Source of the DNA: Candidatus Micrarchaeota archaeon
GTDB taxonomy: Archaea; Micrarchaeota; Micrarchaeia; Anstonellales; Bilamarchaeaceae
Direction of reading: 5' to 3'
Length of the DNA stretch: 64,000 nucleotides
Assembly (NCBI GenBank): GCA_043827025.1
Contig: JBDRPL010000010.1
Location: 18,837 to 82,836, forward strand
The translations under genes were made by a program, and so were the position numbers. The first letter of the stretch is position 1, and each line of letters begins with the position of its first letter. Positions 5,353 to 46,477 of the stretch are shown here, in pieces. Below the pieces are notes generated by a model. The model was not told the origin of the DNA and ran no database searches. It worked only from the letters and a program-made list of their open reading frames with translations.

Positions 5353-5545
5353 ATGGGGACTTAGCTTTTTATAGCTAACCCATACCCCGTGTTTTCCTTA
5401 AAAAATAGTTGGGGGTGGTCAGAAGGCCCGATTGACTAAACGTCAATGGGCACAGTGAACGAAGTTCACTTGTGGTGCGTGGAAATGGGAGGGGGAACGG
5501 CCCCCTCGCGTTTTCGCATGGGGACTTAGCTTTTTATAGTTAACC
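5353..5545. repeat. 28-bp direct repeat (5353-5380 and 5518-5545, one mismatch) flanking a 137-bp GC-rich hairpin-containing spacer
   Basis: atggggacttagctttttatagctaacc versus atggggacttagctttttatagttaacc; each copy has a TATA-like ttttata; lies between divergent leuS and the membrane operon. Confidence 0.9.
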
Positions 5546-5561
5546 TGATTAGATATTATGC

Positions 5562-6821
5562 ATGTTATTCCCAGTGGCACAGCTAGTTATAAGTGGTCCC
5601 GTGTGGGGCAACATACTAGTTGCACTGATGTTTGGGGTAATTTTAACTTCGTTGACTTATTTTGTAGGTGCTATAACCCAAAGCCCTAAGATTAATGCGG
5701 CTGCAAAAGAAGAGCTTATTGCCCTTGTTTTCAGTATGGTAATAATAGGTTCATTTGCATTTGTGCTTGCAACCCTGAGCCAGGTAACTGCAGCCATATT
5801 TGCGGATGCAACTCATGATGCAGGCTTTGATCCTGCCCATGTTGCCAGTGGCGGGATGATAAATTCTCATTTTGACCTTGCAAGTTCTGCCCTGGACATT
5901 TTGTTTGTGAAACTCAAGAGCATATACGCAAGCCTTTATCTTTATGATGTCCTCATAGGTTTCCTTTCAACAATGTCATTTCCTCTTGGAAATCCTATGC
6001 CATTTCTTGCGCTCATTACATTTTCATTCATGCCTTTTGATGGATTGGTGCTTCTTGTTAATGCCCATACTATAGTTGTGGAAGCAGTTGGCTACCTTAT
6101 AACTGTGGTAATGGCAAAGCAGTCATTACTGATTTTTTCGCGGGATGTTGTCATAGCACTATTGCTTCCCCTTGGGCTTGTGATGCGCGCATTCCCCTGG
6201 CTGAGGATGACTGGTTCGAGCCTCATAGCGTTTTCTGTAACTCTTTATTTTATTTATCCGCTTACATTACTGCTTTCCAATTACATGATATTTGATGTCT
6301 ACAAACCAGTTGACTTTGTCTATTCACCAAACCAGAAAATGCTTTCATTTTTCGGTTCTGATAGTGACAGTAAAATTCCCGATGACACTATAACAGAACT
6401 TGAAAAGCTTACCGAACGCTCTGGAGAGGTTATGCATACCATGGCTGTTGAACCCGAGCATGATTGCTCGGGGTCTACCTTCGCATTTCTCTGCAACCTT
6501 AAATATTATGCTTCGATGGTTTGGAGTGGTGTCACAGGATTTGCCGGGACTGTGTGGAATGTCTCGAAATTCATGTGGGGTTTTGGAGGGGATTATTTGG
6601 GCTATTTCTTTGGGAGCAAGGGAGGCCCGGCTTCTTTTGGTTCCACTGTTTCAGGGCTTTATAAATTCGTTATTGAGGAAGTTGTGACTGTATCGCAGTT
6701 TATAGTGCTTATAACAATAACTTCGGTGATAGAGATAATAATCACTGTTACTATGTACAGGAACATAGCATTGCTGATCGGAGGAGAGGTTGAAATTGCA
6801 GGCCTTACGAAACTGGTGTAA
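5562..6821 (+). CDS. Multi-pass membrane protein, CedA/VirB6-like paralog 1
   Basis: LGLVMRAFPWLRMTGSSLIAFSVTLYFIYP; C-terminus GGEVEIAGLTKLV. Confidence 0.6.
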   Translation: MLFPVAQLVISGPVWGNILVALMFGVILTSLTYFVGAITQSPKINAAAKEELIALVFSMVIIGSFAFVLATLSQVTAAIFADATHDAGFDPAHVASGGMINSHFDLASSALDILFVKLKSIYASLYLYDVLIGFLSTMSFPLGNPMPFLALITFSFMPFDGLVLLVNAHTIVVEAVGYLITVVMAKQSLLIFSRDVVIALLLPLGLVMRAFPWLRMTGSSLIAFSVTLYFIYPLTLLLSNYMIFDVYKPVDFVYSPNQKMLSFFGSDSDSKIPDDTITELEKLTERSGEVMHTMAVEPEHDCSGSTFAFLCNLKYYASMVWSGVTGFAGTVWNVSKFMWGFGGDYLGYFFGSKGGPASFGSTVSGLYKFVIEEVVTVSQFIVLITITSVIEIIITVTMYRNIALLIGGEVEIAGLTKLV

Positions 6822-6823
6822 TC

Positions 6824-8110
6824 ATGAAAAAACTCTCCATAATATTTATCTTGTTGTTGTTCGCAGGCTTGCTTTTTGCAGCAGTTGATTTCAACCAGAG
6901 TCTCACAGATGTGCGTGATCTTATTGAGGGAATGGTAACGCAGCTCCTTCCTATTTTGGCCTTGACAATGGTTGTTTTCGCAGCTTTTGTATACCTCGCG
7001 GGCAGTATAGGTGATTCGTCAACTAGAGCAAGGGCAAGTGTTTGGGCAAACGCATTCTTGGTCTCGGCAGTCGTCTCAATACTGCTTTATATGGTATTGA
7101 TAGCTTTCTTTGAGCAGGTGTTTAAGGACCTACCGCCTGAGATACAATTATATCAAAACATTTTTCTTGCAGTAGTCACCGTCCTGACAGGAATAATTGT
7201 AATCGCATATGGGATCTCTAGTGTCCTTAACAATTCTGAGTGGAAGGCCTATTGGGGCCATGAGATTTCGCAACTCGTTGCATCAGTACTCATACTTTTT
7301 TTTGCATTGGCATTCTTCGTCACAGTGAATGCATTCTCTTCAAGCATGACTACATCTATAACTGGAATCAATGAGGCTACTGCGCCTCTTGCTGCAAATG
7401 CCTTTCTTGAGAGGATACTTCTTAAGAACATAGCTCCTGCAATCGACGATCTTTTCAAGCTTCAGCTCTGTCTTTCGCACCTAAGCACATTCCAGAGAAG
7501 AATTGGCGAGTATGTGCTTACGATGACTTACAAATTGTTTCCTGCAGTAGATTCCCTTCTTCAGGTAGTGAATGTGATTTTTTTTGGGTTCGTTGCAGTT
7601 CTGGGAAGCGTTTCGACCCAGATGCTGATCCTTAATATTGTGGATTCCGTAATGATCTATGTGTTGACTGCAGGAGTGATACTTAGGTTCATACCCCCTA
7701 CGCGAGAGGCTGGCGTTTTTCTTATAGCTCTTGCAATAGGTTTTCAGGCAATATTTCCGCTCACCTATATACTTAATATACATGCACTCAGTATTGTTGG
7801 TTTTGCTGATTACACACCACCAATCCAGATAATGACTCTTTGCGGTGCCAAATACATTGCATTTGGGGTCGGAACTGAATTAATCAGTTCAGCTCTTTCA
7901 GGAGTTCCTATCCTTGGTACTGCATGGGCTGCAATTTCGGGTTTGGTTACTGAGCTTCCGATAAACCTTTTGAGCCCCTTGGAATTCACAGTATTCCTGG
8001 AGAATGTTGCATATCTGTCGCTCATAGCGCTTTTCATGCCCGCATTCTCAACGACGATTACGTTTGCATTTATAAATGCGTTCACCAAATTTGTTAATAT
8101 GAAAATGTAG
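6824..8110 (+). CDS. Multi-pass membrane protein, paralog 2, with N-terminal signal peptide and VirB2/pilin-like hairpin
   Basis: AGVILRFIPPTREAGVFLIALAIGFQAIFP; N-terminal LLPILALTMVVFAAFVYLAG...TRARASVWANAFLVSAVV. Confidence 0.6.
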   Translation: MKKLSIIFILLLFAGLLFAAVDFNQSLTDVRDLIEGMVTQLLPILALTMVVFAAFVYLAGSIGDSSTRARASVWANAFLVSAVVSILLYMVLIAFFEQVFKDLPPEIQLYQNIFLAVVTVLTGIIVIAYGISSVLNNSEWKAYWGHEISQLVASVLILFFALAFFVTVNAFSSSMTTSITGINEATAPLAANAFLERILLKNIAPAIDDLFKLQLCLSHLSTFQRRIGEYVLTMTYKLFPAVDSLLQVVNVIFFGFVAVLGSVSTQMLILNIVDSVMIYVLTAGVILRFIPPTREAGVFLIALAIGFQAIFPLTYILNIHALSIVGFADYTPPIQIMTLCGAKYIAFGVGTELISSALSGVPILGTAWAAISGLVTELPINLLSPLEFTVFLENVAYLSLIALFMPAFSTTITFAFINAFTKFVNMKM

Positions 8111-8139
8111 AAAATATGTAGAAATAAAGATGTGGAAAA

Positions 8140-9564
8140 ATGGCTTTGCTATGTCAGGGAAATGTTCCGTATGATTCTGCTGTCCAAGGTGCAGCCCATG
8201 CAATATCCACGTCTACATTGTGGTCTTCAGCCATTCCAATAGCAGCGCTTCTCATGATAATCGGCGTCATCCTTGTAGCCCTGGTTTACATGCTGAGCGG
8301 CATATTTCAGGATGACAAGATGAAGGTCTGGGCAAGGATGGAACTTTTTGAGATCATCTATTCTGCAATAATACTTTGTATGGCTGTTTTTGCAGTAGGG
8401 CTTGCGGATGAGGTCGCACGTTGTGTTTCGCTTGACCCTAATCTATCGCCCACATCCAGGGCACTTTGCGACAATCCAGACGACCCCTTTGGCACTTCTA
8501 CAACTTCTGTTTATAATGGTATCCCATACTGCCACATGAGGATGGCGATTTCATATACGGATACTATATTTGCAGAAACCAATAAATTCGCCCTTTTGCT
8601 TTACGGCAGTTATATCTACACGTCCACATTTGCAGATATGGCTATAAATGTGGAGTTTGTTTTCGAGAAAGCAGGTTTCATGACTTTTAATCCGTTGAGA
8701 GGATTATTTACCATAGGAAATGACATGCGTTCCTTTCTTTTTGATACCCTCATCAAACTAATGCTCGTCACGAAATTCCAGGAAATTCTGCTTGTGTTTA
8801 CTGCAAAGGTGCTTTTCCCATTGCTGTTCATAATCGGTGCAGTGCTGAGGACATTTGCATTTACCAGACGGCTTGGAGGATTGCTAATGGCACTTGCCCT
8901 TGCATTATTCTTCATTTACCCCATGTTCTATGTGTTCGGAATGTTCATCCTAGATTCCCTGAAAACACAGGCAGTGGGATACTGTGTCCATTCTGGCCAG
9001 GGTACATTGGACGAATGCCAAGATTCTGTTTCAGTATTCTCAAATTTCTATAGTGGCGGCAGCGTTCCGCTTATAGGCTCTTTTAATCCTGGGGAACTTG
9101 AAGGTTCAACAAAAGGCAAGAGATCTACTGAGGTATTTGACCCATTTGTCAATGGTATCAATGGAGAAAGTGGATTGCCTAAATTCTATACGCCGCCTCA
9201 TTCCTGCACTGTACCTGTTGATTGCATAGGCGATCCAAAATGTATGGTCGATGAGGGCAATGGAAAGGTCAATTATTGCGAATGCAAGGACTCTGAATGT
9301 AAGCTAAATGATGCAGCAAATGAGAAAATCCAGGGATTCGGAAGCAGTCTACTGCAGGGCTTGACAGAAAGGTCATGGAGCGATTCGCTTTTCATAACTG
9401 ATTTTTCGAAAGATGGGGGATATGTGGACATAACTGCCAGAATTGCGTTCTTTTCAGTTTTCTTTTCATTATTTGGATTGCTTGCAACTATTGCTGGAAT
9501 CAGGAGCATTTCGATGTTCCTTGGTGGGGATCTTGAGATCGCGGGTTTGACGCACCTTATCTGA
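8140..9564 (+). CDS. Multi-pass membrane protein, paralog 3, with Cys-rich soluble loops
   Basis: IGAVLRTFAFTRRLGGLLMALALALFFIYP; C-terminus GGDLEIAGLTHLI. Confidence 0.6.
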   Translation: MALLCQGNVPYDSAVQGAAHAISTSTLWSSAIPIAALLMIIGVILVALVYMLSGIFQDDKMKVWARMELFEIIYSAIILCMAVFAVGLADEVARCVSLDPNLSPTSRALCDNPDDPFGTSTTSVYNGIPYCHMRMAISYTDTIFAETNKFALLLYGSYIYTSTFADMAINVEFVFEKAGFMTFNPLRGLFTIGNDMRSFLFDTLIKLMLVTKFQEILLVFTAKVLFPLLFIIGAVLRTFAFTRRLGGLLMALALALFFIYPMFYVFGMFILDSLKTQAVGYCVHSGQGTLDECQDSVSVFSNFYSGGSVPLIGSFNPGELEGSTKGKRSTEVFDPFVNGINGESGLPKFYTPPHSCTVPVDCIGDPKCMVDEGNGKVNYCECKDSECKLNDAANEKIQGFGSSLLQGLTERSWSDSLFITDFSKDGGYVDITARIAFFSVFFSLFGLLATIAGIRSISMFLGGDLEIAGLTHLI

Positions 9565-9573
9565 TGTGATGCT

Positions 9574-10797
9574 ATGAGCATGTTGACTACTAAAAATTTA
9601 TTTTTCTTCCTCATATTACTCACTTTGACTTATGCTTCGCTTAATAACCCTCAAGAGCAAGAGCAGGCTCAAGAAGGCCTGACCAAGCTATTCAGTGATA
9701 TGGCGCAGGAAGCCAAAGGAGTTACAGGCGGAGTGGTCCATACTCTTTTCGGCGCCTTTCAACCAAGTTCCTGTGGTGCTGAGGATACATGGTTGAATTT
9801 CGGAACAATGAATTGGCTTATTCCATCTGTCTTTGTTGCGATGGTTGTCCTATTTGGAATCACAATACTCTACATGATGGGCAATCTTTTCCAGCTACAG
9901 AACCTCATTTTGGTTGCTAAAGAAGAATATTTTAATTCATTCGCAACAGTTCTGCGTGTAATACTGGTACTTGGCGCAGTTGCAACTGTTGATGCTGCCT
10001 GGTATGGTTTGCAGACTAATAATCTTGGCCCTGACCCTGATCCAGTATATAGTTCTTCGCCAGTCATGATTGATGCAGCTCTTGTCTTCAGCTACCAGAC
10101 AATGACTGAGCTGAATTCTGTTTTCAGCAATTTGCTGATGTTCAACATGGTTGTCCATACCCTTTATACCTCTACGCTTTATTTTGGAGTGACATGGCGT
10201 GCAATGTACTCTTTCAACCTGGGTCCCGTACTTAAGCCAATAATTGATATTTTGGGAGTTTCAATGAATATGCTTTCTGTAGCCATAGGCGAATGGGTCA
10301 TTCATATGGCTACTCTTTGTATAATAAAGAAATGGGCCTTTACCTTATTCATCCCATTGGGCATGCTTCTCAGAGCCATACCTCATACAAGGGCAGGAGG
10401 AGAAGCGCTTTTCGCGCTTGTATTTGCCTTTGCAGTTATCTATCCATTCATGTTCATAGTTGATTATGAAGCGCATAAGATACTAAAATCTTCGATACTC
10501 GATCCAACTGAAAATACGCTTATGACTGATCTTATGGAAGGAACAGGGCTGTTCAAGGTTGCAACTATGATGGTCGCATTCTTTTTCCTTAGCGGAGGTG
10601 TTTTTGTACCTGTGCTTGTAGAAGCAGGACTTTCAATTACCTTCGAGCTTGTCAATGCTGCTGTCTATTACATTGTAATTCTTGGGCTGTTATTGCCTTT
10701 TATAAATATTTTTATAACTCTTACTGCTGCCAAGGAATTTGCAAAAGGATGGGGAGGGGTTGACATAAATTACATGGCATTCGTGAGGCTGATCTGA
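9574..10797 (+). CDS. Multi-pass membrane protein, paralog 4
   Basis: LGMLLRAIPHTRAGGEALFALVFAFAVIYP; C-terminus GGVDINYMAFVRLI. Confidence 0.6.
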   Translation: MSMLTTKNLFFFLILLTLTYASLNNPQEQEQAQEGLTKLFSDMAQEAKGVTGGVVHTLFGAFQPSSCGAEDTWLNFGTMNWLIPSVFVAMVVLFGITILYMMGNLFQLQNLILVAKEEYFNSFATVLRVILVLGAVATVDAAWYGLQTNNLGPDPDPVYSSSPVMIDAALVFSYQTMTELNSVFSNLLMFNMVVHTLYTSTLYFGVTWRAMYSFNLGPVLKPIIDILGVSMNMLSVAIGEWVIHMATLCIIKKWAFTLFIPLGMLLRAIPHTRAGGEALFALVFAFAVIYPFMFIVDYEAHKILKSSILDPTENTLMTDLMEGTGLFKVATMMVAFFFLSGGVFVPVLVEAGLSITFELVNAAVYYIVILGLLLPFINIFITLTAAKEFAKGWGGVDINYMAFVRLI

Positions 10798-11942
10798 TGG
10801 GCATCATCTATGATAAAATCTGCGTGAACGGCGGTGCAGCCATAAGCGATGTAGTCACACAGTGGAGATTTGGGGATGTTGCCATAAATTGGATGCCTCT
10901 TGCAGCTGCAGCAATGCTTGCCTCTGTTGTAGTAATCGTATTGATCTACCTTTTTGGAGTTATAACTCGGGACCCGAATGCAAATACATTTGCAAAAATA
11001 GAGTTATACGAAGTATTCATCTCCTTCATCATAGTTCTTTTCCTCATGGGAGTACTTGGTTCGCTTTGTTCTGTGAGCATAGGAAAACTTCTGGTAGTCA
11101 ATCAACAAGCTCCCCTTCCGGCAGGAAATGATGATATTGATGAATTCCTTGACATGGATGTTTTTTCTGCAGGTGAGGACTATTTCGAAAAGGTTTCTGC
11201 TGACATGGAAGGCTGGATGGTTGTCAATTATTTCTTTGCCATCTGGCTTGATGAGGCCGCGACCATAACTCCATATTCGAGGCCATTGGGTGTTGGTATG
11301 GTGGCAGCTCCTCTTGCAGGGCTTGCAGCACCCCTTAAGCAAGTAGTTTACAATGTGTATGTTGCTCTTTCCATCGCATACATAATCAACTATGCCCAGC
11401 TTTATGTCTTCCGTTTTTCAATAATCGCATTCATGTTCATTTATTTCCCAATAGGTATTTTCCTGCGTTGCTTCACGCCTACAAGAAGAATTGGCGGAAC
11501 CCTGCTTGGAGTGGGCATTGGTTTCCTTGTAATTGTCCCTCTCCTGACTCTTGTTGCGCACGTGATGTTCATGTCCTCATATGGAGTCATTACACTATTG
11601 AATGATAGCATTACCAACTATGTCGGCAGCTCTCTCTCTGTTACAGCAGGAGCCAAATCCATATTGGCCAACCTCTTTGACATTAGCGTGCCTACCATAA
11701 TAGGCAGTTTTGTTGCAGGGAAATTTGGAGCAATGCTTGGTTTCATAATAGGCGCAGGTGGAATACCCGGCTCATTGCTCACTGCAGCATTTATCATTCC
11801 AATATCAACAGTTGGCGCCGCGTTCCTTATAGGATTCCTTATTCCTGCATTTAACACTATCATTCTTGTATATTCTGTGAAATCCCTTTCCAGATCTCTT
11901 GGCGAGGAGATTGATGTCAGTTCTTTGACGAGGTTGATATGA
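10797..11942 (+). CDS. Multi-pass membrane protein, paralog 5
   Basis: IGIFLRCFTPTRRIGGTLLGVGIGFLVIVP; C-terminus GEEIDVSSLTRLI; TGATG overlap with the previous gene. Confidence 0.6.
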   Translation: MGIIYDKICVNGGAAISDVVTQWRFGDVAINWMPLAAAAMLASVVVIVLIYLFGVITRDPNANTFAKIELYEVFISFIIVLFLMGVLGSLCSVSIGKLLVVNQQAPLPAGNDDIDEFLDMDVFSAGEDYFEKVSADMEGWMVVNYFFAIWLDEAATITPYSRPLGVGMVAAPLAGLAAPLKQVVYNVYVALSIAYIINYAQLYVFRFSIIAFMFIYFPIGIFLRCFTPTRRIGGTLLGVGIGFLVIVPLLTLVAHVMFMSSYGVITLLNDSITNYVGSSLSVTAGAKSILANLFDISVPTIIGSFVAGKFGAMLGFIIGAGGIPGSLLTAAFIIPISTVGAAFLIGFLIPAFNTIILVYSVKSLSRSLGEEIDVSSLTRLI

Positions 11943-13105
11943 TGAAAATGCGATTGCTGTTGCTTGTTTTTATTCTGTTCCTGAGTGTTCCGCTTCATTC
12001 AGATGATGCTTCAGTTGGCCGTGTCCTAATCGGCTGGGAGGCTCTTGCATACGGTGCAGCAATAGTCTCATTCGTTTTTGCTATTCTTGCATTGATGATT
12101 GGAAGGGCATTTGACCTGAGGAATATCACCCAGGCAGCCAAAACAGAGCTCATCTATATTTTTTCTACCATTTTACTCATAATGATGCTTGGCGTTTTCG
12201 TTACAACTGGGTCAGACCTGCTCTATGAACTTTCCACGCAATTGCTTTGCTCAAGTTATTCTAATGTCCCGTCTTTCCAACAGGCTTTTCCGGATTGTGA
12301 ACTATATGTGGCACCTCCGCCAGTCTATGATTATGATTCAAATGGGGGTAGGATTGAAGTAACTCTCAAACCCCATGTCATTGATGTTGCAAAGCTCTAT
12401 CTTCAGCCAGTGGTGCTGGGAGCGCAGACTTCGCAAAAAATATTATATGGATTGAGCATACCTGTGGAAGCCATGGCTTCCATTTATGTCGAGATCTTCA
12501 TGAGTGAGCATGCCTCAGGATTCGGATTCAAGCCATTTGCCGAGAGGATAAAGAATACCAACATGGCAATCAGCTTCTATCTCTTTGCATATTATCTGAT
12601 AATCCATATCCTGAATTTCATAAGAGCATATGGCCTGTTTTTCTTATCTATAGGGGTAATATTAAGGTGCTTCCCACCTACTCGCGGTGCTGGTGCATAT
12701 GTCATTGCACTCACGCTAGGGCTTTATTTTGTCTTCCCGTTTTCATTTGTCATGGCTTCAGCAGTCAGTGCAGGTTATTCTTTCGAACAGAGTTTCCTTG
12801 GTTTCGGCGGAGGCAAAAATCTCATATTTGCCCTGCCTTTTGAGCTTCCGGAGAACTCAAAAATATGCAATGGCATGGATTCCAGCTCTGTTGTTGATGC
12901 CATTCAATATTTCAAGGCTAACAAGTCGGACATATTCAATATAATGGATGTCATCAGCCTTAATGTGGTCAAAGCCATGACGCTTAGGATATGCCTGCTT
13001 CCGCTTGTTGCGCTTACAGTGACATTCACATTCATCCTTTCCACTACAAACCTTTTCGGAGGCAATATTCCTGAAATAGGAAGAGGGCTGGTTAAGCTTA
13101 TTTGA
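11939..13105 (+). CDS. Multi-pass membrane protein, paralog 6
   Basis: IGVILRCFPPTRGAGAYVIALTLGLYFVFP; C-terminus GGNIPEIGRGLVKLI; ATGA overlap. Confidence 0.6.
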   Translation: MMKMRLLLLVFILFLSVPLHSDDASVGRVLIGWEALAYGAAIVSFVFAILALMIGRAFDLRNITQAAKTELIYIFSTILLIMMLGVFVTTGSDLLYELSTQLLCSSYSNVPSFQQAFPDCELYVAPPPVYDYDSNGGRIEVTLKPHVIDVAKLYLQPVVLGAQTSQKILYGLSIPVEAMASIYVEIFMSEHASGFGFKPFAERIKNTNMAISFYLFAYYLIIHILNFIRAYGLFFLSIGVILRCFPPTRGAGAYVIALTLGLYFVFPFSFVMASAVSAGYSFEQSFLGFGGGKNLIFALPFELPENSKICNGMDSSSVVDAIQYFKANKSDIFNIMDVISLNVVKAMTLRICLLPLVALTVTFTFILSTTNLFGGNIPEIGRGLVKLI

Positions 13106-14986: not shown

Positions 14987-15541
14987 ATGAGAAAATTCGT
15001 TATCGATACTTCGCTGTTCGTCAATCCGTATGCAAGAGGGGCTTTTGGCAAAGACCCAAGGGCTGCGCTCAAGGCATTTGTCAAAATAATAAAGAAAAAG
15101 AAGATCGAGTTCTTCATGCCCCCGTCCATCTTCCGCGAATTGACTAACTTTGTCGGAGATGATATTGAGCATCTAGAGATGGTCGTAAAGCGTAAGTCGC
15201 CAAACCTGTATTCCATGTACCTTCCGGCAGCAGTTTTCTATGATTTCATAGAAGATGTGCGTGCAAGAATAAACAAGGGTTTGAGGCTTGCGGAAGAGGC
15301 TGCAAAGGACAATACTCCTGATAATGATCCGAAGCTCAATAAACTAAGGCAGAAATACAGGGAATTCATGCGCACTGGTCTGTTGGACAGCAGTGAAGAT
15401 CTTGAGCTTGTTCTTTTGGCAAAGGAAATTGAAGCTACTTTAGTTAGTTGCGATGAAGGCGTAATTCATTTCGCAAGCAAGATTGGCTGTGAAGTATTGA
15501 ATGCGACTAAGTTCGCGAAGCTGCTGAAGACGCTGAAGTAA
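14987..15541 (+). CDS. PIN-domain protein-only RNase P (HARP / RNA ligase partner, UPF0278)
   Basis: FVIDTSLF, MPPSIFREL, RINKGLRLAEE, GLLDSSEDLELVLLAKE, VSCDEG. Confidence 0.88.
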   Translation: MRKFVIDTSLFVNPYARGAFGKDPRAALKAFVKIIKKKKIEFFMPPSIFRELTNFVGDDIEHLEMVVKRKSPNLYSMYLPAAVFYDFIEDVRARINKGLRLAEEAAKDNTPDNDPKLNKLRQKYREFMRTGLLDSSEDLELVLLAKEIEATLVSCDEGVIHFASKIGCEVLNATKFAKLLKTLK

Positions 15542-15548
15542 TTCTTAG

Positions 15549-16610
15549 TTAATCTATCTGCCCCCTTCCTCTTAGGGCCCCATTTATCTTTTCTGATGTC
15601 TTTCTGTATATTTTCCTGAACCTTATCCTTTTCCTGTTGCCTTCTTTCTTTTCAAAAACAGTTTCTACCCTTATCTCCTTGCTCATGTGCTTCTTTATGT
15701 TTTCGTAGATTCTTGGATCTTTCACTAGTATTTCATATTCCTCGTGACTATGGCCTTCTTTTTCTGATTGTTTTATGGAATCAATTAAATTGAAGAATGC
15801 CTTCCCCATCCGTTTCTCATATTCGTCTCTCTTGAGCCCGAAGTCATTTAGGAACATTGAAGCTCTAAAGATGCGCTGCATGAAGAATCCTGGCGGCATA
15901 TCAAAAAAGCTTTTCACTGCTTCTTCCACGTCGGCAATGTCTGAATTCGCCACTACATATTTCACGGTTTCCTTTCTGCTCGCTGTTTTTATTACTATTC
16001 CTTCCCTGTTGGAATTGTTTATATCAAGTGCGATTTTCTTTATCTTGTCAATATCTTTTGTGCTGAATTTGCCAAGCCTGGGCACGCTTTCGATATCGTA
16101 TTTGTCCAGCAACTTATACTTTTCTGCAATAGGCAGATAGGTTTCGTTTTCCAATCCTATGTCAAAAACAAGGAATTTCACATCAAACTTTTTTGTTGGC
16201 AGGGTATATGGCGTATTGCCGACCATCTCTCCGCACAATACATATTTCGGATGATCTTTGAAGAACTTCTCAAGTTTCATTTCCCTTGCCTTTTCAGTTG
16301 AGAACAAATCAATGAAACCGCCTCTTGAAAAGGCAAATACCTTGCCTTCAACAATTGCCACCCTGACATTGAAGCCATCTATCTTCTCTTCTATGTAAAT
16401 CTCTTTTTCAGTTATGTTCTTCTCAATGCCTTTGTCCAAGGTAAAGATTCGTTTTATGTGAGGGTAGCCAGGAACGACTCGTTCTCTTGTTATTACTCGC
16501 CCTCGGTTTATTTCTCTAAAGCCTTCGCGGAATCTATAATATTCAATATCTTCTTTGTGGTGTATAATCTTCCCGCGCTTGATTGCCTCGTCCAGCTCCT
16601 TCTTTTCCAT
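15549..16610 (-). CDS. ATP-dependent RNA ligase, Rnl3/Pab1020 family
   Basis: GYPHIKR, motif I EEKIDGFNVR, CGEMVG, FDI, REGIVIK, KY. Confidence 0.9.
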   Translation of the reverse strand: MEKKELDEAIKRGKIIHHKEDIEYYRFREGFREINRGRVITRERVVPGYPHIKRIFTLDKGIEKNITEKEIYIEEKIDGFNVRVAIVEGKVFAFSRGGFIDLFSTEKAREMKLEKFFKDHPKYVLCGEMVGNTPYTLPTKKFDVKFLVFDIGLENETYLPIAEKYKLLDKYDIESVPRLGKFSTKDIDKIKKIALDINNSNREGIVIKTASRKETVKYVVANSDIADVEEAVKSFFDMPPGFFMQRIFRASMFLNDFGLKRDEYEKRMGKAFFNLIDSIKQSEKEGHSHEEYEILVKDPRIYENIKKHMSKEIRVETVFEKKEGNRKRIRFRKIYRKTSEKINGALRGRGQID

Positions 16611-39635: not shown

Positions 39636-41639
39636 GTGGTGTTTATGAAACTTAAAAGAATGGATAGTATTAGGAGTGTTAGGGAGGTCAGCGTCCAACA
39701 CAGAGGAGGTTTTTTAGCTGCATGTACTGCATTTGCTACGATCATTGCATCATCTTTCATTCCGAGTTTGGCGCATGCAGGGTCTGATTGCGCAGCTTTG
39801 CAGCAAAACTGCATTGATGCTGACAGCTCAAATGCAAAACAATGCAGGACATTTGCAAAACGTTGCGGTATATGGTCAATAGACCAGAAATCCAAGGCTG
39901 CATTAGTTCTTGAGAATGACATTGCCACCTCTTTATCACAGATTAGTGCAGGCACTCCTACTGAGGATGTTACTGCTGTTTTTCAGGAATTCCAGAGCTT
40001 GCGTGCTACTGCAGAAAAATCTATGGGCAAGCTTGGAAAAAAGCCAAAACCAAAAAACATTGCTGCAGTTACCAATGCCTTTGATAAGGTATTGGCAAAA
40101 GGCCAGGAAGCAAAGGAGAAAGTAGATTCCCTTGATCAAAAATCACAAGTTCCAGAACTTACTGCACAAAGGCTGATAGACAATAGGGCAATATGCCGTT
40201 CCATGCTTTCTGATTTTAAGGAAAGGTTGGATAAGGTAGGGGAAATGGCTGCAAAACAAAAAAAGAAAATTGATTTTGCAGATGCGAATCTCTATTATAA
40301 AAGAATGAAAAAATCCTATGACCTTGCTCTTAAGACTGAGCACGTTCTGCTTGAAAACAATTCAGAGGTGACTAATGCGCAAAATCCTCCTGGGATTTTG
40401 ACTCTGGCAGATCTAACTGGAATTGCAGATGACTATACTCAAGCAGTTGCTTCTGGAAGAAAACTTGAAGTTGCCTTAGCTGGTTTTGAAGCGACCCTTT
40501 TTCCAAAGCCTAAAGACTCTGGACAACTAGTGCAATCAGTACAACCCACTGCCCTCCCATCTGAATTGCTAGAAATGGAAGGTATGCAATGGGCAGGTTC
40601 GCAGGTTCTAGGTGCAGATTGGGCATTTGTTACTGCAGTTCGTGGAATCCGATTCAATTTCACTCCTGATTCTGCGGAATATGCTGATGCTCAAGGCGCA
40701 GAAAATCTTACGCTTGACACATCTCCTGCTAAATATGCTACAACTTCTGTGACTGGGCTGTTGAAGCTCAGCGAAATGTTTTATGCTTCATTGGGATATG
40801 GATATATTCATGCTGGAGTGAGTTCTCCGTTCGTGGAGCTTGATCCTGAGAATCCTCTCCAGGCAAGCCCGAAATTTGCAATATTTAAAACGACAGAGCA
40901 CAGGTTCCTTTTAGGGCCCGGACTTCTTTTTAATCTTGGAGATAATCCTCTTCTTTTGGTTCCGAAGTTTGGGTATTCTATGTCTTCAAGCCAAGTCCAA
41001 ACCTCTTCATTGCAAGGGGTTGATGCAACAAAGGTCGATTCAACGGCTGATGGAGGGTCATCATCTGGCCTTGTAGCCGAGTTTCATGCTTCTTTCTTGA
41101 TGAAACGTATGTTGGCTTCTCTTGATTTGAGCAACAATCCTAGTACATTGGCATCTTTTTCCTTGCATTTGGGCTTGCCTAATTTCACTACAAGCGACAT
41201 GCGGTTAAGCCTAGATGGACAATTTGGAACTGTTTTGAGTGCTTCTGAACCAACACGTGTTGGCGATTCTGTAACTTATAAGTCTGATACTCGTTCATTC
41301 CAAAGAATTGGAATGAATCTATTGCTGCCACTTTTGGATCTCTCCGGAGGATCATATACTCTTGCATTGGATCTTGGCGGAAGCGCGCTTGCAGTGGATG
41401 GAGAATCAACTTCATTTGCAGGAAGCGCAGGGGTTGCATTCAAAATATCGGATGCATTCTTTATTTCGGTTTCCTATGATTCCTCGAATGCAATATTTGC
41501 ATGCGTAAACGGGCGCGTAGAAGGAAATGGTGCATTCACCAATGTTGATTGGCGCCTTTCAATTCCATCTGATATTAATAATCTTGTTGGTTCAGGCCGC
41601 ACTAGTTTCGGCAGAGCTATGTCTGAGGTGAAAAAATGA
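39636..41639 (+). CDS. Secreted hypothetical protein: helical N-half, beta-strand-rich (barrel-like) C-half
   Basis: Basic leader, hydrophobic stretch ending AHA; alternating strands such as YASLGYGYI, PKFGYSM, AEFHASF, LALDLGGS, AGSAGVAF, FISVSYD. Confidence 0.5.
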   Translation: MVFMKLKRMDSIRSVREVSVQHRGGFLAACTAFATIIASSFIPSLAHAGSDCAALQQNCIDADSSNAKQCRTFAKRCGIWSIDQKSKAALVLENDIATSLSQISAGTPTEDVTAVFQEFQSLRATAEKSMGKLGKKPKPKNIAAVTNAFDKVLAKGQEAKEKVDSLDQKSQVPELTAQRLIDNRAICRSMLSDFKERLDKVGEMAAKQKKKIDFADANLYYKRMKKSYDLALKTEHVLLENNSEVTNAQNPPGILTLADLTGIADDYTQAVASGRKLEVALAGFEATLFPKPKDSGQLVQSVQPTALPSELLEMEGMQWAGSQVLGADWAFVTAVRGIRFNFTPDSAEYADAQGAENLTLDTSPAKYATTSVTGLLKLSEMFYASLGYGYIHAGVSSPFVELDPENPLQASPKFAIFKTTEHRFLLGPGLLFNLGDNPLLLVPKFGYSMSSSQVQTSSLQGVDATKVDSTADGGSSSGLVAEFHASFLMKRMLASLDLSNNPSTLASFSLHLGLPNFTTSDMRLSLDGQFGTVLSASEPTRVGDSVTYKSDTRSFQRIGMNLLLPLLDLSGGSYTLALDLGGSALAVDGESTSFAGSAGVAFKISDAFFISVSYDSSNAIFACVNGRVEGNGAFTNVDWRLSIPSDINNLVGSGRTSFGRAMSEVKK

Positions 41640-44600
41640 AATCTTTACACTTAAGAAATACCGGAAATTCACATGGAAGACACTCAACTAGAGGAGTAAT
41701 AAAATCCACATTGGTAGCAGCAGGAGGAAGCCTAATCGGATTAAGTGCAGTTTCTGTCCTTTCTGGTTGTCTTGATACGTTGAAGCCTTCAGGCACTTTC
41801 ATTGAAAATCAAATTCTTTGCGGAGTTACACCTGATGGAAAATCCGCTTATCTCATGGATGGCGGAAAAATTATCGAGGAAACTCGTAAAGATAAGGAAT
41901 GCAAGGGCATTGAGGCAGTGTCAATTCCTTATTGTGAGGATGGCGAAGTTAAAACAAGGGAAGAAAGTTGCAAGGATCAGGGAAAAAGATGTAACAATAC
42001 TACCAAAGAATGCGGTGATGCAGAGGTAGTGTGTACTGATTCCAATGGCAGCGTCCTAAGGACTCTTGGAGACGAAGTTTTGGAAAGCAAGCCAAAGAAA
42101 GAATGCGCCCCTGATGGAAGCGCAGTCATAGATAGGCGCTGTGGGGATGACAAACAAATAGCTGAAACACAAACTTCATGTGTTGAGGGTGAACTTTGCG
42201 ATCCAGGCCCTTTTGCATGCAAGGAAATCCAATTATGCGAGGTTTCGCCTGATGGAAGTATAAGCGTGACAAAAGGCATTAATGTAACTACTGTTGTGCC
42301 TGAATGCGACCTGAACGGTACGTCTTATTCGAGACCACGTTGCGATGGAGATAGGCTGGTTCCAGAAAATATCAATTGTCCTGAGACGCATGCGTGTACG
42401 CCAGGACCTTTAGATTCATTGAATCCAAGATGTGACATTCCTGTTGACAAGTGCAACACTCGGCCAGATGGTTCTGTTGTCCAGATCTCTGGAGGCCAGG
42501 TGGTTGCAACTGAAATCAAAAGATGCGTAGATGATTCAGTAGTAACTCCAAGGTGCGACGGAAATCAAATTGCCCGCGATACTGAAGTCTGCGATGAAGG
42601 CAATCATTGCGAGGAAGTAAGCGTTACATGCCAGGTAAATCTTAATTGCGAGTCTCTTGGAGGCGGAAGGATTCGTGTAACAAACGGAACAAATGTACGT
42701 GAAGACAGTCCTGTTTGCCGTGAGGGTAGAAGATCAAGAACAGTTCCGGCATGCAATGGCCAGGTTCCGCAAGATCCTGTTCCTGTTGAAAACTGCCCAG
42801 TAACCCATGATTGCGATGAGTTGGAAGGTACGTGCAGTGTTCCTGTTGTTTTGTGCAGTGTTCGTGGAAATGTTGGTACTGTTACTGTTGCAGGAGAAGT
42901 TCAGGAGGATAAGACTAGACAAAAAAGATGCAGTGATGATGGAAATTCTGTTTTGATTCCTTATTGTTCAAGTTCAAATAGTTTGGATGTTGAAGAAAGA
43001 GAAACTCAATGTAGTGCAGGAACTCAATGCGATGCTGGTACTTTGGCATGTGAAACTATACGCGCATGCCAGCCCTTGCCTAATGGGGTAGGGATAAGAG
43101 TAACCGAAGGCACAAATATCAGTGACATTGGCCCAGACTGCAGTGATGATTTAAAATCCCGTACTGCTCCTGTGTGCGACGGGGATGTTGCCCAGGTTCC
43201 TGTTCCTACAGTAGACTGCCCAGTAACCCATGATTGCGATGAGTTGGAAGGTACGTGCAGTGTTCCTGTTGTTTTATGCACTGAGAGGCCAGATGGTTCC
43301 GTTGTCCAGACCGAGGCAGGAAATCCCATTAAAACAGAATCAAAAAAATGTGATCATAATTCAGTGGTAACTCCGAGATGCGACGGAAATCAGATAATGC
43401 TTGATACACAACCTTGTCTTGATCATTTTGCATGCGATGCTGGAACAGTTTCATGCAAGCCGTTAACTGAGTGCGTAGTTGATGGTGGAACTGTTAGGCT
43501 TTTAGAAGGAGGCCAGGAAATACGTTCGGAAACAAGTGGTTGTGATGGAAATACTGTCGTGACTGCAAGCTGTGCAGGAAACCAGATAAATTTAGCTCGT
43601 CAGGACTGCGTTGCACCTAATTTTGAATGTAATGCAATTGCATTGGGTTGCGATCCTGTCACTAGGTGTACTGCGTCAAATGGATCTGCACGTGTGACTA
43701 GAGGTGTGGAAACAATTGAAGAGCAACAAAGAAGGTGCAGCGAAAACCAGAGGTCTGTTTTGAATTTCACATGTGATGGGAATCAGATAGTTAGTGATCA
43801 ACAAAATTGTGATCCTGGATTTGCATGCGGGCTTCAGGGGGGAACAGTTGCTTGCTATCCTACCAGTGCAAGATGTTTTGAGGACAACGGCTCTGCAGTT
43901 CTGTTGGATGACGAAGGTCAGCCAGTTGAAGCGTCTAGAAGAACTCCAGAATGTGATATAGGTACCAACGTATTGACAACCTTCAGATGCAATGCAGAAG
44001 GCCAGATCATTTCAAGTCCGCAGGCATGCGGGAATGCGCTGGATTTTGCATGCAATTCAATTAACAGATCTTGCGACCCTCTTTCAAGATGTATTCTTGA
44101 CAGGGGAGTTGGAAAATTCCTTGTAGGGGGAGTGGAGCAACCTGAACATACTCTTATAACGAATTGTGATGGAAATGTCCTGCAGGTTCCATTATGCCAG
44201 GTGCAGGACCAGCCGCCAGTACTTGATGACACCGACTGTAGGGAAACAGGTATATGCAATGATCTAGCTGCGGTTTGTGATCCAAAAAATGACTGCAGAA
44301 TAAATGCTGACGGGTCTGCACAGCTTTTTGTCGGTGGAGAACCAAATGGACAACCAGTTTCTGTTCAGTGTGAGGATAATATAATAAGAATCCCAATGTG
44401 CGTTGTTGATGATGCACAAAATTCTGCAAGTGTGACTGTGATTGACAGGGCGTGCGGTGTGAATCATGAATGCAGTGTCGAGGAAAGGACATGTCTTCCT
44501 AAGCCAGGGTGTACGCCTGCTGGAAATGGCACTGTAGTCCTGACTCTTGGAGGTCAGTTTATAGGGATAGAATCTCCTGCATGCGAGGGCAACGATGTGC

Positions 44601-46477
44601 GTTCATTTAGCTGTAATATTGATGGAAGTTATGAAAGTTATTTAGAGTCCTGTGGTGATCCACTGGATTTCAGGTGCAGCAATGCCAGATGTGAACCTCT
44701 TACACGTTGTATTGAATCAAAGGATGGTGATGAGGTAGTACAGAGTGCAGTTCAGATGGTTGGTGGTGTTGCTCAGGATGCAACAAGAAAAGAAAGGCAG
44801 TGTGCAAATGCTACAAGTATCAGCGTGCCCCAATGCGAAGGAACAACACCTGTTCATGCAAGAGTGGATTGCGCTCAGCACAATGAGTGCGATGATGTGT
44901 CAAAACAATGCATTCCATTGACAGAATGTCGCGTGAATTATTCAGGAGGTGTGCCTGTCATGGCAGAGCAAACTCTGGGCGGTCAGCCGAACGGTGTTTA
45001 TGAAGAAAGAAGGTGCTCGAACGGAGCTGTTTTGCTTGTTCCCAAGTGTACAAATGAGGCGCCAGATACGGATGCTGTTCAATGCGGTGCAGAACAACAG
45101 TGTTCTGTCAGAAACGAAATTGCAAATTGTTTTTCTGCAGATGCAATATGTGTTCAGGATGGCGATCAGACATATTTTGCGGTTAATGAAGTTGAAGTTG
45201 CTGGAACCAGAAGAAAACCGTCGTGTATGGATGGTATTGATGCTTATGGAAACAAATATCGCGTTCTGAAGCCAAGGTGCGATGGGGATGTTGAGGCAAA
45301 TTGTGCTGAAACTGAAAATTGCCTGACTCAGGATGGAATTGGTTCATGCCAAGAAGCTTCGGTTGTTTGCGAACAGTTGCAGGATGGAACTGGAGTAATA
45401 AGAAGACAAGCCAGAACATTATTTGAACCTGTTAAACATTTTTGCCAGGATGCATGGTCATGGGTCAGAAGGATTTGCAATGTAGATCAGTCTTATGGCC
45501 AATCGCAAGTAATTCCTTGTCCTAATGAAACAGACGTATGTGTTGAGCCAGGTGATGTTGCATCATGTATAGAAGACACTCCTGTTTGTACTGTTGACGG
45601 TGTAAATCATACAGCAACAGAAGCACAAGGAAGAAAAATTACTGTAGTGACTAGTGAATGTTCTATAGATAGGAGGGCACTTGAAAATGCGGAATGTGAT
45701 TTACAAGAACAACACGCAATATCCAATTCGGTTTCTTGCGATGCAGGTGCAGCATGTAATCCCCAGTCATTATCCTGTGAAGCTGTCAGTGATATTCTAA
45801 GTGGCTTGGTTCTAAGATTGCCTTTTGATTCTGTAGATGCAGGTATGACTGCAGCTGTTGTGTATGATGGAAACGGAAACCCAATCCAGACGCTTCAGGC
45901 AACTGTTAGCGGGCCAGTCCTTGCTGAAGGGATAGTTGGCAGTGGCGCCCTTTCTTTTAACGGAATCAATGATCGTGTTTCTGTACCACCTATTATTTCG
46001 AACATAGGTAAGGACTCATTCACTGCGTTATGGTGGGTCAAAATGCCTGCAGGGGATGTAGGAACGAGACGTATTTTCATGAGTAATATCGGAGTACCTG
46101 GAATTTCAGGCCAATTTAGCTTTGAAGCCTATAATCCTGACAAGTCTTATGTATGGTGGACATCATCACCTCGTGAATTCATGTCATCTGGTAATCTAGG
46201 CATCAAGGATGGCAATGTCCATTTAATTGCATATATACGAGATAAGCAAAATAATAAATGGCAAATATTCAAGGACGGAGAGATTTTCTACGAATATTTG
46301 GCAACTGCGGGTTCGGATATTCCTATGACTGATCCTGGTTTTGCAATTGGCTGGTTCAGCCATGCAGGTGCTGATCAGGGCATTTCCTTCTTTGGAGTAA
46401 TGGATGATGTGAGGCTGTATGGGAGGGTTTTAACTCCTCAGGAGCTTCAAACCGTTCTTTCCTTAGGGACTTTCTAA
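41636..46477 (+). CDS. Large Cys-rich repeat lipoprotein with C-terminal LamG/concanavalin-like domain
   Basis: VLSGC lipobox; roughly 65-70-aa six-Cys repeats; ALSFNG...SFTALWWVK...GVMDDVRLYGRVLTPQEL. Confidence 0.8.
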   Translation: MKSLHLRNTGNSHGRHSTRGVIKSTLVAAGGSLIGLSAVSVLSGCLDTLKPSGTFIENQILCGVTPDGKSAYLMDGGKIIEETRKDKECKGIEAVSIPYCEDGEVKTREESCKDQGKRCNNTTKECGDAEVVCTDSNGSVLRTLGDEVLESKPKKECAPDGSAVIDRRCGDDKQIAETQTSCVEGELCDPGPFACKEIQLCEVSPDGSISVTKGINVTTVVPECDLNGTSYSRPRCDGDRLVPENINCPETHACTPGPLDSLNPRCDIPVDKCNTRPDGSVVQISGGQVVATEIKRCVDDSVVTPRCDGNQIARDTEVCDEGNHCEEVSVTCQVNLNCESLGGGRIRVTNGTNVREDSPVCREGRRSRTVPACNGQVPQDPVPVENCPVTHDCDELEGTCSVPVVLCSVRGNVGTVTVAGEVQEDKTRQKRCSDDGNSVLIPYCSSSNSLDVEERETQCSAGTQCDAGTLACETIRACQPLPNGVGIRVTEGTNISDIGPDCSDDLKSRTAPVCDGDVAQVPVPTVDCPVTHDCDELEGTCSVPVVLCTERPDGSVVQTEAGNPIKTESKKCDHNSVVTPRCDGNQIMLDTQPCLDHFACDAGTVSCKPLTECVVDGGTVRLLEGGQEIRSETSGCDGNTVVTASCAGNQINLARQDCVAPNFECNAIALGCDPVTRCTASNGSARVTRGVETIEEQQRRCSENQRSVLNFTCDGNQIVSDQQNCDPGFACGLQGGTVACYPTSARCFEDNGSAVLLDDEGQPVEASRRTPECDIGTNVLTTFRCNAEGQIISSPQACGNALDFACNSINRSCDPLSRCILDRGVGKFLVGGVEQPEHTLITNCDGNVLQVPLCQVQDQPPVLDDTDCRETGICNDLAAVCDPKNDCRINADGSAQLFVGGEPNGQPVSVQCEDNIIRIPMCVVDDAQNSASVTVIDRACGVNHECSVEERTCLPKPGCTPAGNGTVVLTLGGQFIGIESPACEGNDVRSFSCNIDGSYESYLESCGDPLDFRCSNARCEPLTRCIESKDGDEVVQSAVQMVGGVAQDATRKERQCANATSISVPQCEGTTPVHARVDCAQHNECDDVSKQCIPLTECRVNYSGGVPVMAEQTLGGQPNGVYEERRCSNGAVLLVPKCTNEAPDTDAVQCGAEQQCSVRNEIANCFSADAICVQDGDQTYFAVNEVEVAGTRRKPSCMDGIDAYGNKYRVLKPRCDGDVEANCAETENCLTQDGIGSCQEASVVCEQLQDGTGVIRRQARTLFEPVKHFCQDAWSWVRRICNVDQSYGQSQVIPCPNETDVCVEPGDVASCIEDTPVCTVDGVNHTATEAQGRKITVVTSECSIDRRALENAECDLQEQHAISNSVSCDAGAACNPQSLSCEAVSDILSGLVLRLPFDSVDAGMTAAVVYDGNGNPIQTLQATVSGPVLAEGIVGSGALSFNGINDRVSVPPIISNIGKDSFTALWWVKMPAGDVGTRRIFMSNIGVPGISGQFSFEAYNPDKSYVWWTSSPREFMSSGNLGIKDGNVHLIAYIRDKQNNKWQIFKDGEIFYEYLATAGSDIPMTDPGFAIGWFSHAGADQGISFFGVMDDVRLYGRVLTPQELQTVLSLGTF
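42792..43275 (+). repeat. Exact 61-bp direct repeat (42792-42852 and 43215-43275) within the Cys-rich gene
   Basis: actgcccagtaacccatgattgcgatgagttggaaggtacgtgcagtgttcctgttgtttt occurs twice; encodes CPVTHDCDELEGTCSVPVV. Confidence 0.92.

Follow-up and report, generated by a model that had tools for sequence, protein, structure and literature searches.

A conserved row of six CedA/VirB6-like membrane proteins in Micrarchaeota, candidate base of a chromosomal pilus machine

Introduction

Six consecutive genes for divergent membrane proteins lie within a 64,000-nucleotide stretch of a Micrarchaeota contig (the window), and raise the question of whether their products work together and, if so, in what machine. 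An earlier note on this DNA had compared them with CedA, the VirB6-like channel of the archaeal Ced DNA-import system, and had suggested a single heteromeric pore for exchange with a host cell. Here, we examine the relationship of the six proteins to known channels, their conservation across the phylum and their association with pilins and ATPases. A literature search, whose coverage left subscription journals largely outside, found no paper on such a system in Micrarchaeota.

Results

The window carries six ancient paralogs

The six-gene row (row A) lies on one strand, with intergenic gaps from gene 1 to gene 6 of 2, 29, 9, -1 and -4 nt (Table 1), bearing out the tight, co-oriented arrangement of 381 to 474-residue proteins first described. 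All 15 of the 15 pairs align with E-values between 1e-3 and 2e-20 (against a database of the six sequences), and the other five proteins are 19-26% identical to gene 1. A hairpin glutamate and the G, R, R, G and P of the core are invariant in all six proteins. The shared hairpin and core motif of the earlier note therefore stand, while its 'P.TR' element proved looser: gene 1 is without the T, gene 3 is without the P and the P of gene 5 is shifted. The C-terminal tail is indeed present in five of the six, gene 2 being the exception. Cysteine-containing loops, described as frequent, are mainly a feature of gene 3, the counts for genes 1 to 6 being 2, 2, 13, 2, 3 and 5. The row A genes are tightly packed, ancient and real paralogs.

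GC content is even across the window, and the flanks of row A hold housekeeping-type genes including a methyltransferase and a gene that we take to encode leucyl-tRNA synthetase. The two copies of the upstream 28-nt repeat (at 5353 and 5518, 165 nt apart, with one mismatch) are found only there in the genome; the region has no Rfam match and is possibly a doubled promoter. Downstream, a 184-aa gene and a convergent 353-aa gene (14987-16610), presumably PIN-like and RNA-ligase-like, respectively, follow row A in genomes G000 (that of the window), G050 and G059. A 1613-aa ORF of unassigned kind (41636-46477) lies within a long plus-strand run.

Table 1. Coordinates of the row A genes, associated features and related loci in the same genome. 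Positions without a prefix are those of the window; C and L numbers denote contigs and loci.
Feature	Location	Strand	Description
Row A	5562-13105	+	six ORFs
Row A position 1	5562..6821	+	CedA/VirB6-like membrane protein, 419 aa
Row A position 2	6824..8110	+	428 aa; family core preceded by a predicted signal peptide and an extra pilin-like hairpin
Row A position 3	8140..9564	+	474 aa; Cys-rich loop (13 Cys)
Row A position 4	9574..10797	+	407 aa
Row A position 5	10797..11942	+	381 aa; model aligns whole-chain with R388 VirB6
Row A position 6	11939..13105	+	388 aa
Upstream region	5353..5545	+	28-nt direct repeat holding a TATA-like run, before gene 1
Pilin-like domain of gene 2	6833..7144	+	about residues 4-107; homologous to free VirB2/TrbC-like pilins of the genome and phylum
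Row B, second six-gene row	C11:60441-67723		found with a profile of the six row A proteins
Row B with adjoining Cys-rich lipoprotein	C11:60441-68600 (L001:10442-18601)		lipoprotein runs off the contig
Single-copy system	C2:12485-16366 (L002:4486-8367)	-	family member, two-TM partner, DUF87 CedB-like ATPase, coiled-coil protein
Motor operon	C9:58832-65189 (L052:8833-15190)		two-TM partner, CedB-like ATPase, coiled-coil protein; same three genes as on C2
Three free VirB2-like pilin genes	C32:87636-88602 and C21:23775-24023		

The family is probably distantly related to CedA and VirB6

Scanning with the CedA model NF041796 yielded no protein above the cut-off of 330 bits in any of 21 genomes (best 21.5 bits); 13 of the 14 weak matches fell in the window's membrane-protein family. 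The VirB6/TrbL family (Pfam PF04610) was not matched at E<=0.1 in G000, nor did it appear, for any of the 128 members compared, in the list of 25 families, and a search for a confident match to a known transporter family returned none above cut-off. Structure models of positions 5 and 2 both align over the whole chain, at rmsd 6-8 A, with VirB6/TrwI of plasmid R388 (PDB 7o3v chain F) and with Legionella DotA (PDB 9ngy). The N-terminal hairpin of the family in turn aligned with the pilin profile (hhalign probability 79.7, E 1.5e-5, 55 columns). The proposed CedA/VirB6 likeness is supported by three weak, concordant tests together with gene context (see below). Judged by these profile matches, the relation to CedA is one of distant homology, not membership, and the system is of the Ced/type IV secretion kind while standing outside any named family.

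Gene number and order are constant among the rows compared

The family, which comprises 3,264 clusters at 50% identity and whose nearest ESM Atlas clusters are from Microcaldota (= Micrarchaeota), was found in 57 of the 61 genomes sampled from the phylum. Rows were taken from 50 genomes by best score, a selection biased toward the window's order, giving 75 rows of which three are cut by contig ends and were left out of the count of complete rows. All 72 complete rows (35 in a first set and 37 in a second) have exactly six genes in the same order, although four of them lie so near the edge of a contig (about 1 kb or less) that a seventh gene may have gone undetected. In the protein tree, sequences group by row position and not by genome, the latter being the pattern of lineage-specific expansion that would have counted against the earlier note's reading. 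When each genome was left out in turn, position was assigned correctly for 217 of 218 genes and row plus position for 156 of 156; likewise, all of the held-out genes (222 of 222) were given the right position by profiles built from the first row set. Each row position is its own lineage. The loops vary strongly between positions and between genomes, and the tail pattern is absent at position 2 in 35 of 35 rows while being present in 23-33 of 35 at the other positions. Two genomes of the window's family, with no more than 8 matches, may be without a row, and in G089 three position-3 matches on three contigs could represent a third row or contamination of the bin.

Rows A and B most likely arose by duplication of a whole operon

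A profile of the six proteins retrieved 13 family copies from the contigs of G000, namely two six-gene rows and one single copy; row B and the single copy, both on other contigs, were absent from the earlier note. Position 3 of row B carries a large Cys-rich insert (676 aa). Both an A-like and a B-like row occur in 13 genomes of the window's order in the first set and in three in the second. Profiles built from B genes alone assigned 71 of 78 A genes to their own position, and A-only profiles did so for 62 of 78 B genes, where 13 would be expected by chance. In a concatenated tree, the B clade received an SH-aLRT value of 100, A plus one outside row 99.5, and A alone 62. Rows A and B most likely derive from duplication of the whole operon; the occurrence of both rows across the order and the A and B clades in the concatenated tree would place this event before the order's spread. 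Two rows are present in several other families also, and in families f7 and f8 five well-assembled genomes have one row, to which orthology by row position is weak (56/156 and 14/30). The gene after row B encodes a giant Cys-rich lipoprotein in 12 of 13 cases; row A has no constant neighbours.

Association with pilins and a CedB-like ATPase

No HerA/VirB4-type (DUF87) match was found on the window's contig, in agreement with the earlier statement that the window holds no VirB4/CedB ATPase. In line with the expectation that the motor would be encoded elsewhere, CedB/VirB4-type ATPases, as well as VirB2-like pilins, are present on other contigs of the genome. The best NCBIfam match of both the C2 and the C9 ATPase is CedB, far below cut-off. 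Besides the genes listed in Table 1, the C9 operon encodes a 109-aa protein like the ATPase C-terminus, a 129-aa two-TM protein with CxxC and an 851-aa membrane protein. Further HerA/VirB4-like ATPases of G000 lie at C20:35325-37598 (757 aa), C20:40991-44044 (1017 aa) and C7:12458-14464 (668 aa), two of the three having CedD as a weak best match.

A CedB-type ATPase adjoins the single copy in G000 and the row in families f7, f8 and f9, unlike in the window. Motor-partner genes directly follow the row in 5 of 6 rows of these three families and in 2 of 2 further rows, and pilins are often upstream. The single copy, which was not found in G006 and G007, is preceded by a pilin in relatives (6 of 8 loci, by clustering). 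The 57 of 61 genomes that have the family are also those with the motor partner and the pilin; the other four lack all three, absences that may not be independent. In the window's order, genomes mostly have two copies of the motor partner, of which one belongs to the single-copy operon, so that a single motor probably serves both rows. Genomes other than G000 have 1 to 7 pilin-domain matches each. Among 56 pilin domains compared with Pfam, 19 matched T4SS_pilin and 12 TrbC/VirB2 at E<=0.1 (best 7.8e-6); none matched the solved pili by sequence. We are confident of homology to CedA/VirB6 and of a partnership with pilin and motor.

A pilin-like domain is fused to gene 2

Gene 2 of the row possesses an extra VirB2-like pilin domain at its front, a new feature that the earlier note does not contain. 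This domain is recognised by a profile built from 11 free pilins, gene 2 not included, with an E-value of 2.5e-8 and has the same loop motif as the free pilins in alignment; in the structure model, it forms a separate helical hairpin (helices 26-62 and 65-101) ahead of the core. Within the window's family, 18 of the 23 A rows contain pilin fusions, which involve four different positions: position 2 bears a tandem pair of pilins in 14 rows and one pilin in the window, and three genomes have fused pilins on positions 1, 4 or 6. Position 2 accounts for 15 of the 20 pilin-fused proteins. The spread over four positions suggests that fusion occurred repeatedly. With one apparent fusion set aside as a false match, B rows and the rows of other families showed none. 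In G011, a 687-aa surface protein with a C-terminal pilin domain (L040:15870-17933, minus strand) lies upstream of the row and is a possible tip or adhesin subunit.

Discussion

The closest precedents are the DNA-import systems Ced (Sulfolobales: CedA/CedE, CedA1, CedB/CedD) and Ted (Thermoproteales: TedA, TedC, TedB). As far as the available parts of the published accounts go (PMC9905601, PMC11868833), the Micrarchaeota system has in common with them a chromosomal pilin, a VirB6-like membrane protein and a VirB4/HerA-type ATPase, and with Ced a channel N-terminal hairpin homologous to the pilin (CedA/CedA1, PMC9905601); a Ted-like minimal layout is seen in the single-copy operon, with its pilin, one family member, partner and ATPase. 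It departs from their one or two channel genes in having six fixed paralogs per row, with two rows per genome in the window's order, in the extra pilin domains fused to subunits and in a separate two-TM motor partner; its matches are far below the family cut-offs and it is known from genes alone. The Rvh virB6a-e genes of Rickettsiales are similarly described (PMC2653234, in part) as VirB6 paralogs that lie in tandem, are inherited vertically, have diverged by about 80% and differ in their flanks; the cell is host-dependent, and the genes of the system are dispersed around its chromosome. However, Rvh has four to five copies with occasional loss, compared with the invariant six here, and belongs to a diderm system with VirB8-11 and VirD4; unlike here, whole-row duplication and pilin fusion are not mentioned in the available part of that account.

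We lean, if only slightly, towards the six position-specific paralogs, one copy each, being the membrane base of a chromosomal Ced/T4SS-like pilus machine, probably for DNA uptake. Such a machine would assemble a pilus of the VirB2 type and transfer DNA from cell to cell, an asymmetric ring of six chains replacing the homo-oligomeric VirB6 stalk base. The N-terminal hairpin would recruit pilins by analogy with helix 1 of R388 VirB6, the proposed pilin recruitment site (PMC9259494, in part); because of that proposal, a pilin fused directly before the hairpin may be held, pre-loaded, at the loading site. The C9 CedB/VirB4-like ATPase and its two-TM partner would power pilus growth or transport, with rows A and B as alternative bases on the shared motor, B together with the giant Cys-rich lipoprotein. 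The invariant count, fixed order, tight packing and survival through row duplication lead us to favour a fixed complex, and that the six chains form one heteromer seems reasonably probable. Against this, the known VirB6 and pilus base of R388, a mobile element that has its own relaxase and coupling protein, are five-fold, with five identical VirB6 chains, in the part of the report available (PMC9259494).

That same five-fold symmetry raises the possibility of a VirB6-like pentamer made up of the five paralogs that have the tail, with position 2, which lacks it, acting as a peripheral pilin loader, in keeping with the consistent lack of the tail at position 2 and its share of the fusions. Yet position 2 retains the full core and its model aligns to the whole VirB6 chain, fusions are found on positions 1, 4 and 6 too, and the tail pattern is a crude test, having missed 8 of 8 single copies; we consider this arrangement unlikely.

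No relaxase or coupling protein was found in G000 (91.6% complete) among the three families searched (PF03432, PF08751 and PF02534), and for this reason DNA import, as in Ced and Ted, would be the likeliest activity; whether DNA is the cargo is nevertheless an evenly balanced call. The same absence would suit a machine of this build that does not handle DNA, serving instead as an attachment pilus, in protein export into the host cell or in drawing material from it. The giant lipoprotein after row B fits such a role, and VirB4-linked giant surface proteins of nanohaloarchaea have been proposed as effector channels (PMC10266531, in part). The nearest named ATPase family is nonetheless that of the DNA importer CedB, though far below cut-off. 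To our knowledge, Ced and Ted are likewise without relaxases, and we rate a non-DNA machine just as unlikely as the pentamer with its loader.

A little less likely again are alternative homo-oligomeric or mix-and-match bases, co-transcribed and selected per target or cargo, with no single fixed complex. The strong divergence of the loops by position and genome would accommodate them, as would, in partly available accounts, the different import and export roles of CedA and CedE in Sulfolobales (PMC11868833) and the five divergent VirB6 copies of Rickettsia, one of which can be lost (PMC2653234). Independent units should, however, come and go singly, and all 72 rows have six genes, even through row duplication. 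Finally, it is very improbable that this is an unrelated membrane family resembling VirB6 through convergence of long helices, given that the enrichment of CedA-model matches, the pilin homology of the N-terminal hairpin, the pilin fusions and the synteny with CedB-like ATPases are all independent of the fold match.

Returning to the six-chain pilus base, its partner need not be a host: some Micrarchaeota orders may be less host-dependent (PMC12892359, in part), which would allow for a partner of the same species. Counting against the proposed machine, the tubes in the one imaged pair are host-derived in the available part of that report (PMC11329633). In its fullest form, which we put forward as doubtful, the proposal is of an undescribed phylum-wide T4SS-like machine in which six different VirB6-like chains make up an obligate asymmetric ring as the base, with two base versions on one motor in the window's order and pilins repeatedly fused as pilus primers in the window's family, serving as the symbiont's own conduit to other cells.

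A fixed base of six VirB6-like paralogs would depart from the five-fold homo-oligomer of R388, and the natural pilin fusions point to a pilin-loading site and offer ready-made constructs for studies of pilus nucleation. The system lends itself to multimer prediction, to expression in a foreign host, and to proteomic or tomographic work on the Micrarchaeota co-cultures already available. Few molecular candidates exist for the attachment of DPANN archaea to other cells or their exchange with them; this machine is a testable one with named parts (six base subunits, pilins and a motor), present in nearly all of the sampled genomes of the phylum.
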